Virus record (IMG/VR): IMGVR_UViG_3300043427_002668
Strand: one strand, 5' to 3'
Length of the DNA: 64,000 bases
DNA from: a virus
Lineage: Duplodnaviria > Caudoviricetes
Part shown: positions 6,793-14,835 of the stretch, piece after piece
Layout of the letters: each line of letters begins with the position of its first letter
Position numbering within the stretch: the first letter of the stretch is position 1
The notes under the pieces: generated by a model
Databases searched by the model: none
The model's input: the letters and a program-made list of their open reading frames with translations, nothing else
Told to the model about the DNA's origin: nothing
Program-made: the position numbers and the translations under genes

Positions 6793-6826
6793 TTGACAGG
6801 TTCTTCACGAACTGTTATGATAAATA
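6793..6826 (+). promoter_or_regulatory. psbA promoter: sigma70 extended -10 plus late-type ATAAATA
   Basis: TTGACA 6793-98, 17 nt, TGn-TATGAT 6816-21, ATAAATA 6820-26. Confidence 0.8.
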
Positions 6827-8848: not shown

Positions 8849-8878
8849 CTTCCTGATTAAGAAACATTACAATAAATA
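8845..8878 (+). promoter_or_regulatory. psbD promoter (sigma70 plus late-type)
   Basis: TTGACT-17-TACAAT with overlapping ATAAATA. Confidence 0.75.
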
Positions 8879-9986: not shown

Positions 9987-10571
9987 ATGCTAATGGTTTG
10001 GAATAAAGGATTAAAAAATGACCCCCGATTAAAAGGGGGTCGCCCTAAATCAAGTCTCTCATATGTCGGTCAGACTTGTGGGAGACTTACTATTTTAGAA
10101 CAGTATAGTGATAAGAAAAGCATTTATTTTAAATGTGAGTGTGAATGTGGTAATATAAAGGACAAAATTCGTAAGGATTATATAATAGGATCTAAAGCAG
10201 AAATAAAATCTTGTGGATGTAGATTAAAAGAACTTCATCAAGAAAGGAGGGAGAAAGGTATTGATGAAGTATCTGCCATGTGGTCTAGAGCAAAATATAG
10301 AGCAAAGCAGAAAGGATTAGACTTCGCAATAGAACAAAAAGATATTATTATTCCAGATAAGTGTCCTCTTCTTGGAATACCATTAGAATGTCATCGTGGT
10401 AAGGGAAGTCAGCAAGGAAATTCTCCATCTTTAGATCGTATTGACCCCTCAAAGGGATACATAAAAGGTAATGTGTGGGTCATAAGTAATAGAGCAAACA
10501 CTCTCAAAAATGACGCCACCCTACAAGAACTTCAAACACTTTTAGAAAACCTCAAATTTTATGTCTCATAA
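9987..10571 (+). mobile_element. free-standing HNH-like homing endonuclease
   Basis: WNKG N-terminus, GRLT...CECECGN...SCGC, and C-terminal SLDRIDPSKGYIKGNVWVISNRAN. Confidence 0.75.
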
Positions 10572-11521: not shown

Positions 11522-11833
11522 ATGTCTCTTACTATTGAACAAATCGAACAACAGATTTCGGATCTCCAAAAAACTTTGGATGAACTGAAAAACCAAAAAC
11601 TCAAAGTATCCCGACACTTCTCTGGGCAATACTTTGAACCTTATCAAGGTAGACTGTATAGGCGAATGGAATCTGACGGAGTACCTCTTTGGGAAACCTA
11701 TCTTGATATTAAAAAAGAATGGGTTATTCTTGATGCAAAAGAAATGATGGAACTTGAAAAGACTTATTTAAATGATTGTGTTTCCTTGAATAAGGAACCT
11801 TCTTCAGAAAGTCTTGAAGAATTTATGAAATAA
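11522..11833 (+). CDS. hypothetical protein
   Basis: 103-aa ORF with N-terminal coiled coil. Confidence 0.7.
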   Translation: MSLTIEQIEQQISDLQKTLDELKNQKLKVSRHFSGQYFEPYQGRLYRRMESDGVPLWETYLDIKKEWVILDAKEMMELEKTYLNDCVSLNKEPSSESLEEFMK

Positions 11834-11838
11834 AAAAT

Positions 11839-11870
11839 AAAGAGTGGTGCTGTAGCATCACTCTTTTAAA
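11839..11870. terminator. bidirectional terminator between convergent units
   Basis: A-run, AAAGAGTGGTGC-tgta-GCATCACTCTTT, T-run. Confidence 0.8.
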
Positions 11871-11873
11871 GTA

Positions 11874-12152
11874 TTAAGATACTGGAGGAATTGGTTCTAT
11901 TATCGGAACAACATCTGGTGGATTCTTAGAAGATTCTGGAGCAGGATGCATTGATTGATTAATCACAGAATCCTGAATTACATCAGTCATATCTCCAAAG
12001 TTATTAATACTTTGATCTACATCTGCAATCTGACTATCAATTATATTTTTTTGATAGTTGTAGTATGGATTGTAATAATATCTTCTATAATAATAAGGAT
12101 CAATATTATAATATCTCATATAATAAGGATATGGTTGATAGTGGTATTGCAT
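11874..12152 (-). CDS. 92-aa protein with Tyr-rich N-terminus
   Basis: MQYHYQPYPYYMRYYNIDPYYYRRYYYNPYYNY... has 16 Tyr in the first 33 aa; AGGAG RBS before ATG 12152. Confidence 0.75.
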   Translation of the reverse strand: MQYHYQPYPYYMRYYNIDPYYYRRYYYNPYYNYQKNIIDSQIADVDQSINNFGDMTDVIQDSVINQSMHPAPESSKNPPDVVPIIEPIPPVS

Positions 12153-12166
12153 TTTGAATCTCCTAC

Positions 12167-12304
12167 TTAGTAAGGATAGTACGGATAATAAGGATAATAA
12201 GGGCAATATCTATCGTAGTAAGGATAACGCCCATAATAATAAGGATCATAGTAGTCATAGTATCTTCTATGGCAATATGGGTAGTAAGGTCTCGGATAGT
12301 ACAT
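12167..12304 (-). CDS. 45-aa Tyr/Pro/Arg-rich peptide (51% Tyr)
   Basis: MYYPRPYYPYCHRRYYDYYDPYYYGRYPYYDRYCPYYPYYPYYPY; AGGAG RBS at 12311-15. Confidence 0.75.
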   Translation of the reverse strand: MYYPRPYYPYCHRRYYDYYDPYYYGRYPYYDRYCPYYPYYPYYPY

Positions 12305-13049
12305 TTGAGTCTCCTGTTTGGTTGGATATGTCAAAAGTCCAAATGTCGTATCCTTCTTGTTTGAGGTATTCAAAAGGAATCCAACAGTATCCCTTATCCC
12401 CCCAGCTAGTTCCAAAACTATTCTTTGCTAAGAATAATCTCTTTTCTAAATCATAACCAACCATACACATTGCGTGTCCACCAAGACTTTTTTCTTTTCT
12501 GGAAGGAAAATGTATAGTAGAAATACGTTCATTTAGATCCATAAAACTATCATAAATTTGCATTCCAAATACAACAGGTTTGTTGTTATTCAGCACTTCA
12601 GTAATATAATAAGCACTGATAAGTTTTTGATACTTTAGAACTGTTCTTTTCTTTGCGTCCTCATAGCATTCATCTGTTGGACGATCATCAAACTTGTCTA
12701 AATCATAAGGCCACAAAGATTCAGAACAAACTCCAAACTTTGCTAACGATTTCAAACCATCTCTGAGATAGATTCCATTATCTTCCTGAATATTTCCATA
12801 CTCAGCACGGGTGTTATAGTAAATAAACAACCGACTGAGATGTGTGAAATACTCTGGATATAATTGGTTTACTGATAGTTCATATGCATTAGTGAGTGCA
12901 TTGGAAGAACAACTGCTTAATGAATCTTGCGATTCAACAATCGTATCCCACTCACGAAGATCTACATATTCCCGAAAGGAACTTGTACTATCACTTCTAT
13001 AAATGTAATCTCTTTCATCTGGTTTAGATGGTTTGATGTTGAAGTTCAT
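12267..13049 (-). CDS. papain-like cysteine peptidase (C1A)
   Basis: Q-x5-C (QDSLSSCSSNA), GHAMCMVGY, KNSFGTSWGDKGY. Confidence 0.9.
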   Translation of the reverse strand: MNFNIKPSKPDERDYIYRSDSTSSFREYVDLREWDTIVESQDSLSSCSSNALTNAYELSVNQLYPEYFTHLSRLFIYYNTRAEYGNIQEDNGIYLRDGLKSLAKFGVCSESLWPYDLDKFDDRPTDECYEDAKKRTVLKYQKLISAYYITEVLNNNKPVVFGMQIYDSFMDLNERISTIHFPSRKEKSLGGHAMCMVGYDLEKRLFLAKNSFGTSWGDKGYCWIPFEYLKQEGYDIWTFDISNQTGDSNVLSETLLPILP

Positions 13050-13051
13050 TG

Positions 13052-13696
13052 TTATAATTTTGCTGAGATAATATACCAATCCCCTTCACGACAAAAAACA
13101 GTGATAACGCCATAAGGTGTAGTGATGATGTAATCATCAGCACCATCAATCAATGCTCCATCGGAAGTTGTGACGGTAACTTTACGATTTCCTAGTGGTG
13201 GTCCCATTTCTGCTTTTACAATGATCTCACAACAATCGGTACAGTTTTCAGGTAATGTAATAGTAACAGGTTCGTTGCTGTTGACGCCGATATAGTAATC
13301 ATCGCAAGTAGCAGCATAATCATCTGAAACCAAGATGCTTTTGCATTTGCAGGTACACACTCCTGGTTCCCCTGGGGGCCCCTGTGGTCCTGGTGGTCCT
13401 TGCTCCCCTGGAGGACCTTGTTCTCCTGCTTCTCCTGGTTCTCCTTGGGGTCCTGGAGGTCCTGGTGGTCCCTGCTCTCCTGGAGGTCCTGGTGGACCTG
13501 GAGGGCACTCATCGGGGCAGTTATCACCATCTATGACAATATTAATGTTGTCATTTCCACCACCACGACTATTCAGCATCTCCGTGATTTCTGCACGAAT
13601 AGACTGAATGTTTCCAAACAGATTTGGATCATTACTTCTCTGGTATTGTGCCAGAAGATTGTAAAGATCAATAAGTCTTCTTTCTGCTGAGTCCAT
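13052..13696 (-). CDS. collagen-like, Cys-rich protein
   Basis: About 15 Gly-X-Y triplets flanked by CPDEC and CTCKC; 10 Cys; beta-rich C-terminal domain; AGGAG RBS. Confidence 0.85.
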
Positions 13697-13710
13697 AGTT
13701 ACTCTCCTTT

Positions 13711-13744
13711 AAAAGAAGGGGGAGGAAGGTAAAAACCTCCCCCT
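13711..13744 (-). terminator. intra-operon intrinsic terminator
   Basis: Minus strand AGGGGGAGG-loop-CCTCCCCCT followed by TCTTTT. Confidence 0.75.
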
Positions 13745-13762
13745 GATAACTACTGAACTAAA

Positions 13763-14590
13763 TCAGCGTACAGCATTGCTGGTTGATGACTGACCAACAC
13801 CAGCCATGGTTCCGAAGTTAACCATACCCTGACGGGTCTCAGCAATCTGACTGTTTAAAGCATTTAACTGAGAGTTAACTTGTGAAGACAGTGCTGCGAA
13901 CTGGCTATTGAAGAGACCATCTCTGGCACCCCAATAGTCGTGGCGGCAGTGGTTGAGGTCAGTGTTACGCTCAATCAGCATACGATTGAGTTCATCATTC
14001 TTGAGAGAATTGATGAGGTCACGGGTCTTCTCATTTTCATAAGAAACCTGCTTGCTGAGATCATACTTGCTCTCAGCAATCTCTTTGCTGAGTTGTGACT
14101 GTCCAAGTGCTACAGCAGCAGCAACCTTAGCGGACTCAAGTGCAGCAGCAGTAGCAGTCTTCTCAGTGGCAAGAAGAATTTCACTGCTGAGTTTCTGAGC
14201 AGCAAGGTCTTGAGTTGCTCTTAAAGCAGCAAGATCACGGGATTGATCAAAATCTCTTGCCTGACCAGAAATATAGAAATCAGTAGCTCTTTGCTGAATT
14301 TTATCAGCAGCTTCGTCTACTTTAACTGCTGTGTTATGTCCTACGTTCAGAACATCACGGTTGGTTGCTTCTGAATGCTCAGCAATAGCGTATCTGGTAT
14401 CACCAAAACCATTTGCTAATTCTCTACGAATATCGCCTTGACCGATAGCATTAGCATAACGGTTGTCAGCGGAACGAGTAGCAACATCGTAACGGATCTC
14501 ACCACGCTCTACAGAACCTTCTCTACGGATGTCTGAGTGCTGTGCTGAGAGTGCTGCCCAAGGATCGGGCATATAAACTGGATCTGCCAT
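13763..14590 (-). CDS. 275-aa alpha-helical fibrous protein with 11-residue repeats
   Basis: D/E-x-R-R/Y at residues 20, 31, 42, 53 and 64; high-expression codon bias; AGGAG RBS. Confidence 0.85.
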   Translation of the reverse strand: MADPVYMPDPWAALSAQHSDIRREGSVERGEIRYDVATRSADNRYANAIGQGDIRRELANGFGDTRYAIAEHSEATNRDVLNVGHNTAVKVDEAADKIQQRATDFYISGQARDFDQSRDLAALRATQDLAAQKLSSEILLATEKTATAAALESAKVAAAVALGQSQLSKEIAESKYDLSKQVSYENEKTRDLINSLKNDELNRMLIERNTDLNHCRHDYWGARDGLFNSQFAALSSQVNSQLNALNSQIAETRQGMVNFGTMAGVGQSSTSNAVR

Positions 14591-14815
14591 TTTTTTCTCC
14601 TAAAGGTTAATCGGAGAGCAATACAATCCAATTCCTCCCTGACATAATGCCAGACGAATCGAGCCCACAGACGACCATAGGTGAATCGTCTGGGATTATT
14701 TCTCTTTGAAATCGGACTGTATTACCCGATTAGAGATGAAGCATTAATGAAAGAACCATTTTTGGAATCTTTTAGTAATACATCTTATCTCTAATGAGAG
14801 GATTGCTCCTCGCAA
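14591..14815 (-). other. long structured 5' leader
   Basis: About 220 nt non-coding between late promoter and ATG, with several hairpins including a GNRA loop. Confidence 0.55.
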
Positions 14816-14818
14816 GAT

Positions 14819-14825
14819 TATTTAT
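14819..14825 (-). promoter_or_regulatory. late-type promoter ATAAATA
   Basis: Forward TATTTAT. Confidence 0.6.
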
Positions 14826-14835
14826 GTAAATAAGA

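Follow-up and report, generated by a model that had tools for sequence, protein, structure and literature searches.

What kind of product is specified by a compact run of five genes on the minus strand of a 64,000-nt stretch of phage DNA (hereafter, the window) from the IMG/VR virus record IMGVR_UViG_3300043427_002668 (Duplodnaviria; Caudoviricetes)? The source record is 95.9 kb in length, with a completeness of ~48% as estimated by CheckV, and the window is a part of it. An earlier note on positions 11,874-14,825 had listed five minus-strand genes, a late promoter box, a structured leader, and internal and bidirectional terminators, and had likened the unit to a spore-coat or matrix kit; all of the listed elements are present where that note had placed them. 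In freshwater T4-superfamily jumbo myoviruses there is a conserved accessory cassette, and the region is a version of it with five genes. We tentatively favor the reading that the cassette encodes an accessory virion fiber set, i.e., a whisker, head fiber or 'hair' outside the core tail machinery, which we regard as a good possibility short of a probable one. The features, in 5' to 3' order along the minus strand, are as follows.

14819-14826, minus strand: predicted T4-type late promoter box CATAAATA, with sequence identity at 7/8 positions of the T4-type late box
14591-14818, minus strand: conserved structured 5' leader RNA of ~220 nt with a 5'-proximal hairpin, based on covariation
13763-14590, minus strand: gene 1, a 275-aa hendecad rod (25 x 11 residues); open reading frame (ORF) with AGGAG 7 nt upstream
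13766-13852, minus strand: near-invariant C-terminal tail motif of gene 1, based on family alignment and profile
13721-13743, minus strand: intrinsic terminator inside the unit (attenuator), between genes 1 and 2, based on a terminator scan and folding
13052-13696, minus strand: gene 2, a 214-aa trimeric collagen-like fiber protein; PF01391, AAGGAG ribosome-binding site
13055-13366, minus strand: gp9/gp10-type beta-sandwich predicted for the gene 2 C-terminus (residues 111-214), based on an AlphaFold2 (AF2) model and fold matches
12267-13049, minus strand: gene 3, a 260-aa C1A (papain-family) cysteine protease without a pro-region; PF00112
12167-12304, minus strand: gene 4, a 45-aa Tyr-rich peptide; ORF with AGGAG site
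11874-12152, minus strand: gene 5, a 92-aa protein with a Tyr-rich head and a copy of the rod tail motif (11931-12065); ORF with AGGAG site
11829-11866, both strands: bidirectional terminator (hairpin 11839-11866) between convergent genes, based on folding

Are these five genes a system at all? IMG/VR was searched with the protease and gene 1, which yielded 82 loci, and co-occurrence was counted on 30 non-redundant contigs having gene 1 and at least 5 kb of downstream DNA. The collagen gene is directly downstream of gene 1 in 30/30 of these contigs, a Tyr-rich ORF is found downstream in 23/30 and the protease in 17/30, so that the wide co-occurrence on which the earlier note had staked its claim is borne out in other genomes. 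When the five proteins were compared to the relatives by tblastn, the gene order was the same and the spacing nearly the same throughout the cyanophage clade, in which gene 1 identity is ~45-88% (mostly 61-88%). It is very improbable that the region holds five unrelated accessory genes that merely travel together. The protease family does occur outside the cassette, as a lone gene in Burkholderia phage FLC9 for example, and the protease and Tyr-rich ORFs are absent from some relatives, but order and spacing are conserved down to 35% gene 1 identity, genes 1 and 5 have a motif in common, genes 2 and 3 are predicted to be translationally coupled, and the internal terminator is conserved.

Distant relatives (35-48% identity) add to the cassette a Cys-free paralogue with the same C-terminal domain as gene 2, further paralogues, a conserved helical protein and 'MYKK' paralogues, and some of them have a LuxR-type regulator upstream. 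Aside from this regulator and a DUF7201 coiled coil, the accessory proteins of the extended cassettes have no Pfam/PHROG assignment. The tested carriers are phages of 240-400 kb with a major capsid gene of the Gp23 type, and psbA was found only in the cyanophage representative. The cassette recurs only in large T4-like freshwater phages. DNA nearly identical to the region is present in freshwater metagenomes from two studies, and the deposited phages of INPHARED contain no DNA match to it. Gene 1 itself has >900 metagenomic homologues, none of them named, with no relative in 185,579 prokaryote genomes and no protein match in the 50,697 deposited phage records of INPHARED. Literature searches returned no description of this gene set.

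What does gene 1 encode? The 275-aa product had been described as a 'helical repeat' protein; the helix stands, and in place of a generic repeat we find specifically an 11-residue hendecad rod. The AF2 model, based on 34 sequences, has one helix spanning residues 10-254 (~245 residues) followed by a disordered tail. The 11-residue periodicity in hydropathy was matched by only 3/1000 shuffled sequences, while the heptad periodicity was matched by 240/1000. The lengths in the family are quantized, with 66 of the 120 best homologues divisible by 11, and the window protein is exactly 25 x 11 residues. In the N-terminal third, individual 11-mers of the D-I-R-R-E type can be recognized, and their number differs between relatives. 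If straight, the unbroken helix of the model would be ~37 nm in length. Conservation within the family peaks in the last ~25 residues, which are nearly invariant even at 35% overall identity and have the motif SQ-x5-Q-x3-N-x-G-x-M-x2-V-x-Q-x-S ... NNVR.

No family in Pfam or PHROGs explains gene 1, and an Atlas search retrieved unnamed viral clusters only. As a single sequence, gene 1 has no match among the solved structures, and its profile matches only a designed spike construct and, not significantly, apolipoprotein A-IV (E 0.025-0.05). A GvpC-like rod was also considered and dropped, as there is no family match and the cassette occurs in non-cyanophages too. The weak A-IV matches and an 11-residue periodicity without heptad signal could be taken to favor a non-virion, intracellular role, in which gene 1 would be an apolipoprotein-, LEA (late embryogenesis abundant)- or perilipin-like 11-mer helix coating membranes or lipid bodies, or would organize a late compartment with phase-separating Tyr/Arg peptides, the collagen protein and the protease being helpers. 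The disordered Tyr/Arg-rich peptides and the position of the cassette among host-metabolism genes would fit such a role as well. However, the apolipoprotein matches are not significant, gene 1 does not have the Pro-punctuated 22-mers of apolipoproteins, and it is always paired with a fiber-type collagen protein. T4-like phages without photosynthesis genes also carry the cassette, which therefore has no tie to thylakoids. We consider this intracellular role unlikely.

A comparison closer to the phage particle is with T4 fibritin/Wac, Hoc and Soc, which likewise are expressed late, decorate a T4-type particle without being essential to it, and are distributed patchily. Fibritin forms a long trimer of helices whose C-terminus is a small, conserved folding unit. 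Gene 1 differs from these T4 accessory proteins in lacking any sequence or family match, in its 11-residue rather than heptad periodicity, and in a conserved tail that is disordered in the monomer model. The fibritin comparison also raises the alternative of a fiber-assembly aid that is absent from the particle, with the rod serving as a fibritin-like scaffold or chaperone for tail-fiber attachment and the protease removing assembly domains. Points in favor of such an aid are the length and helical nature of the rod, its conserved C-terminal end, late expression, and a protease whose translation appears coupled to the collagen gene. No likeness to fibritin or to known tail-fiber chaperones was found in Pfam or PHROGs, though, the high expression expected for gene 1 fits a structural component better than an assembly catalyst, and the Tyr-rich peptides would be left unexplained; we judge this alternative improbable.

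Does the partner of the rod look like part of a fiber? Gene 2 matches PF01391 (Collagen) with E 8e-11 and 42 bits against a cut-off of 27.2. Its product has 16 uninterrupted G-X-Y triplets at residues 65-112, the number of which varies among relatives, and 10 Cys. The order in the family is a conserved N-terminal helix, a Cys pair, the variable collagen run, a C-x-C-x-C knot, and a highly conserved C-terminal domain of ~100 residues. Cys clusters on both sides of the triple helix suggest that covalent disulfide stapling under oxidizing conditions is plausible. Collagen motifs are a recognized feature of phage tail fibers (PMC4621102).

The C-terminal domain was modeled by AF2 with a predicted local distance difference test score (pLDDT) of 90.6, and on this model it is a T4 gp9/gp10-type beta-sandwich. 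In the VIA comparison it aligns to CBA120 TSP4 (7rej_A 71-179) with Z 12.1 and rmsd 2.9 over 101 residues, to the Solidus gp83 tailspike with Z 12.2, to the KP1 baseplate protein with Z 11.7 and to the Pa223 capsid spike with Z 10.2; the matches at Z ~12 are well above the next unrelated rows. Foldseek yields T4 gp10 (E 1.7e-3) and gp9 (E 1.3e-2), and in BFVD there are 347 viral matches at E <= 0.001, including 'Baseplate structural protein Gp9/Gp10', tail-fiber, minor-tail and collagen-repeat proteins of phages and giant viruses. The gene 2 domain thus has the same beta-sandwich as a group of phage fiber and tailspike proteins (T4 gp10, CBA120 TSP4, KP1 and Pa223, Z 10-12), and its architecture of a collagen segment joined to a gp9/gp10-type domain recurs in many uncultured phage and giant-virus proteins. 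In T4 gp10 and CBA120 TSP4, domains of this type hold the ends of other trimeric fibers; the likeness of gene 2 to them is a fold match only, and fiber docking is a property known for those two proteins.

Gene 2 also departs from these proteins in several respects. It has no significant sequence similarity to T4 gp10 (E = 1 with a 29-sequence profile), it is short (214 aa), and its Cys knots flank a triple helix. Its gene, unlike those of the other gp9/gp10-type proteins, lies away from the baseplate and tail clusters, and the rod gene is always its partner. A search of the phage's own record turned up no second copy of the gp9/gp10-type domain. In INPHARED the C-terminal domain has one weak match, and NCBIfam returned only collagen-repeat adhesin models, far under the cut-off. 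Two observations on relatives should be mentioned. At L049:6730-7272 and L051:3810-4364, where the rods are 77-84% identical and the protease and Tyr-rich ORFs are missing, the collagen C-terminal domain keeps 2-3 of its 8 Cys. Many of the close relatives (L038:7501-8112, L044, L054, L055, L056 and L059) have an extra gene, not found in the window, between the collagen gene and the protease; it encodes a Cys-free protein of 203 aa with a Gly-rich beta-type N-terminal part followed by the C-terminal domain of gene 2. The second collagen-domain paralogue of relatives has no match in INPHARED.

How are the two small Tyr-rich products connected to the rod? Gene 4 encodes a peptide of 51% Tyr, 20% Pro and 11% Arg with 2 Cys. 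Across the cyanophage clade its ORF, ribosome site, two Cys and a Tyr content of 41-53% are kept while the length ranges over 42-53 aa; the length changes therefore preserve the reading frame. Gene 5 is 17% Tyr overall, with the Tyr concentrated in residues 1-33, and has a Tyr/Pro/Arg-rich N-terminus and a Pro-rich end; its Atlas model is disordered (pLDDT 0.39). The products of both genes are disordered. Neither gene has a match in Pfam, PHROGs or NCBIfam, and for gene 5 the Atlas search gave nothing usable. When a hidden Markov model of the rod tail was run against 15,628 six-frame ORFs, however, the gene 5 family was found with E values of 4e-7 to 1e-3 and nothing else was. The joint alignment of the gene 1 tail and gene 5 is clean, with Q, N, G and Q invariant. 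A search of 1.84 billion representatives with the motif profile found 172 proteins, which fall into two classes only: proteins of 180-450 aa with the motif at the extreme C-terminus, and proteins of 45-130 aa in which a Tyr/Arg/Pro-rich head is followed by the motif.

A short terminal motif common to neighboring genes, here 1 and 5, is also seen in amyloid-signaling motif pairs. This candidate was rejected, as there are no NB-ARC, NACHT or effector domains and one of the partners is a rod protein, the other a Tyr-rich peptide. The possibility that the Tyr-rich peptides are precursors of ribosomally synthesized and post-translationally modified peptides was dropped as well; no modifying enzyme lies nearby, and the protease is of the C1 rather than the C39 family. 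An analogy may be drawn to keratin filaments and their high-glycine-tyrosine and high-sulfur matrix proteins, where an excess of helical rod is combined with small Tyr-rich, Cys-containing peptides. It involves no homology; the likeness is purely compositional, and the organisms differ. A Gly/Tyr/Trp-rich peptide of 59 aa (36% Gly, 24% Tyr), reminiscent in composition of those matrix proteins, lies at L024:689-868 beside the rod gene of a distant relative.

Gene 3 was correctly recognized at the outset as a C1A protease. It matches PF00112 (Peptidase_C1) with E 1.6e-12 and 48.4 bits against a cut-off of 20.7, and PHROG 16701 'peptidase' with E 1e-15. Among solved structures the nearest relative is 3OIS, a deposition entitled 'Cysteine protease' (E 8e-37, residues 7-238), which we take to be xylellain of Xylella fastidiosa. 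The catalytic Q41, C47, H192 and N210 align with the Gln, Cys, His and Asn of 3OIS and are kept in 29-30/30 cassette-linked homologues, so gene 3 is, judged from its residues, a member of Peptidase C1A with a complete predicted catalytic set. Gene 3 differs from 3OIS in its place within a cassette of fiber genes and in having no N-terminal segment or pro-region, because the alignment pairs query residue 7 with chain residue 37, i.e., it starts ~30 residues later than 3OIS; in the papain family a pro-region or secretion signal is common though not found in every member. By eye, with no predictor applied, the gene 3 translation has no hydrophobic N-terminus or signal peptide, and the same inspection of the five translations found no hydrophobic N-terminal or membrane-spanning stretch in any of them. 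In one relative (L047/L026) a shortened copy of the protease without the Cys region was observed.

Could the products instead harden into a coat? The earlier note had drawn a parallel to the Bacillus spore kit (BclA, CotY/ExsY, CotC/CotU), which likewise is late and combines collagen-like, Cys-rich and small Tyr-rich proteins. The parallel proves to be compositional only. None of the five proteins matches the CotY/ExsY or CotC/CotU families in Pfam or NCBIfam, no spore-coat or exosporium family was found in Pfam, NCBIfam or PHROGs, and gene 1 has no homologue in the prokaryote genomes searched. The C-terminal domain of gene 2 is of the gp9/gp10 type and not of the C1q/TNF type; its structural matches contain no C1q or BclA chain, and the match of gene 2 to BclA (1WCK, E 0.009) is through the collagen repeats only.

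A cross-linked coat or occlusion matrix around the particles, hardened by disulfides or dityrosine for persistence or ultraviolet (UV) shielding, would nevertheless make use of the 10 Cys of gene 2, the 2 conserved Cys and the 51% Tyr of gene 4, and the expected excess of gene 1. The two relatives without Tyr-rich peptides and protease (L049 and L051), which retain 2-3 collagen C-terminal Cys versus 8, are also in line with it; such a concurrent loss hints at disulfides between peptide and fiber, but it may represent a single lineage. Against a matrix, there is no sequence or fold tie to any spore-coat or exosporium family, and the collagen C-terminal domain is of the type seen in discrete fibers and spikes. 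The 96-kb record yielded no oxidase, peroxidase or tyrosinase, in a search that is uninformative, since in the tyrosinase search the controls were silent too. Taken with both sides of this evidence, we regard a matrix as an unlikely explanation, whereas the fibrous product that had also been proposed is likely.

Is the cassette expressed late, and in what proportions? In 9 relatives, either TATAAATA or CTAAATA occupies the aligned column of the window's CATAAATA, most of them having the 8/8 box TATAAATA. Within the window, by inspection, 13 of the 17 ATAAATA boxes sit 14-250 nt upstream of co-oriented ORF starts, including those of large late-type and structural genes. This placement, together with the aligned TATAAATA boxes of the relatives, therefore fits a T4-type late promoter. 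By its predicted box at a suitable distance upstream, the CATAAATA unit qualifies as a T4-type late transcription unit, and the proposal of a co-transcribed late unit is supported. It is noted that the non-cyanophage relatives L064-L081 have no TATAAATA box. Instead, a TTTAAGTA-like box lies 60-90 nt upstream of their gene 1 homologues and is followed by a hairpin (ATGAGAG...CTCTCAT); box and hairpin are possibly a late-promoter variant of their own with a 5' stabilizing stem.

The leader is conserved more than its flanking DNA and folds into the 5'-proximal hairpin, a second stem-loop and a long composite stem. In an alignment of 13 sequences, 15 of the 60 predicted pairs have compensatory changes. 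No family match was found in an Rfam search of the leader and region. An invariant box within the leader (14591-14818, minus strand) contains ATG-TAT-TAC-TAA, a Met-Tyr-Tyr-stop mini-ORF.

Downstream of gene 1, a hairpin with a U-run was detected by the terminator scan and folds as a hairpin. A terminator-like hairpin and U-run is present between gene 1 and the collagen gene in 17/23 non-redundant relatives, with unrelated sequences. This terminator should be leaky, leaving the gene 1 product in predicted excess over genes 2-5, and its conservation in 17/23 relatives therefore makes such a rod excess look like a conserved design. Four of the five genes have AGGAG-type ribosome sites, as had been reported, and the protease ATG does lie 2 nt past the stop of the collagen gene; gene 3 has no separate ribosome-binding site and is predicted to be translationally coupled to gene 2. 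Gene 4 overlaps the 3' end of the protease by 38 nt. At the far end, the terminal hairpin folds with -12.9 kcal/mol (z -5.2) as read on the minus strand, where a U-run follows it, and with -17.1 kcal/mol (z -6.5) on the plus strand. Four freshwater metatranscriptome assemblies have contigs that match the leader and gene 1 at 80-95% identity, and in one of them the coverage extends to the gene 2 C-terminal domain, the protease and gene 4. The contigs of the relatives reach ~14794 in the leader, which is compatible with an expressed unit starting near the late box.

Which reading do these results favor? The late box, the virus-only distribution, the fiber-type domain of gene 2, the variation of rod length by unit number and the absence of a visible signal or membrane segment are the reasons to expect a particle-associated fiber. 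If the cassette is such an accessory fiber set, transcription would start from the T4-type late box and run through the structured leader, with the attenuating terminator yielding an excess of gene 1. The rod would be the shaft, and the collagen protein an adaptor or knob. The shared tail motif may dock the rod and the Tyr-rich gene 5 protein at one common site. Because the C-terminal domain of gene 2 and the rod tail are the most conserved segments of the cassette, we infer that the tail may dock on the collagen protein, and the gene 5 protein likewise. The Cys knots could lock through oxidation after lysis, the Tyr-rich peptides may be filler, glue or surface peptides, and the protease might trim one component during assembly.

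Several points weigh against the fiber reading. Lipid-binding amphipathic helices, too, typically have a period of 11 residues, and the A-IV matches of gene 1, weak and non-significant as they are, point the same way. The gp9/gp10-type fold is found in cellular proteins of unknown role as well. The cassette lies in an auxiliary-gene region distant from the structural clusters, and it does so in complete relatives too. A complex prediction with three rod tails (215-275) and three collagen C-terminal domains scored 0.00; it was run without controls and is evidence neither way. The RNA evidence consists of contigs from relatives, which neither prove transcription nor rank the genes and may reflect DNA carry-over. 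Any role assigned to the Tyr-rich peptides, like any substrate assigned to the protease, is guesswork. Gene 1 is found in no cultured phage.

A more specific form of the fiber reading, which we hold to be doubtful, is a composite 'hair'. Here, hendecad rods and Tyr-rich peptides would be recruited by their shared C-terminal motif to disulfide-stapled collagen adaptors and matured by the papain-type protease, the whole being a mobile module that alters sticking, persistence or host finding. The length of the rod would be tuned in evolution via gain or loss of 11-residue units. The collagen and protease parts are of known kinds. Undescribed are the rod, the Tyr-rich peptides tagged with its motif, and the combination as such.

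The genome around the cassette is the auxiliary-gene region of a T4-like cyanomyovirus. The neighbors are psbA, psbD, transaldolase (talC), a PTOX-type oxidase, zwf and gnd, and large ORFs farther downstream have tblastn matches mostly to unnamed or lysozyme/endolysin ORFs of Synechococcus and Prochlorococcus myoviruses. ATAAATA boxes are also present upstream of psbA and psbD (window 6820-6826 and 8872-8878), and both genes may therefore use late-type promoters in the phage. Between psbD and the cassette, an ORF of 194 aa (window 9987-10571) has Cys pairs and a C-terminal motif that by eye resemble a homing-type endonuclease; it has no Pfam family at E <= 0.01. The same record, outside the window, contains a prolyl 4-hydroxylase (P4H)-type 2OG-Fe(II) (2-oxoglutarate- and iron-dependent) oxygenase (PF13640, E 8e-18) at G000:C1:90030-90323, which is compatible with, and not specific for, hydroxylation of collagen proline. 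In a T4-like phage contig (L064:9234-10795), shortly downstream of the contig's own copy of the cassette, the genes for a P-II nitrogen regulator (PF00543, E 3e-32) and an ammonium transporter (PF00909, E 5e-103) are neighbors.

What would the cassette mean for these phages? Its conserved 220-nt leader is an undescribed structured RNA. The shared docking-type motif, the rod-excess design and the variation of rod length in 11-residue steps offer experimental handles. In lakes, T4-like cyanophages and the jumbo phages related to them rank among the most abundant viruses, and the cassette is common there, yet its proteins are all without names. Should it encode an appendage of the virion, the best-studied phage architecture would gain a new accessory layer, with possible effects on adsorption, aggregation, survival in light or host range in nature.

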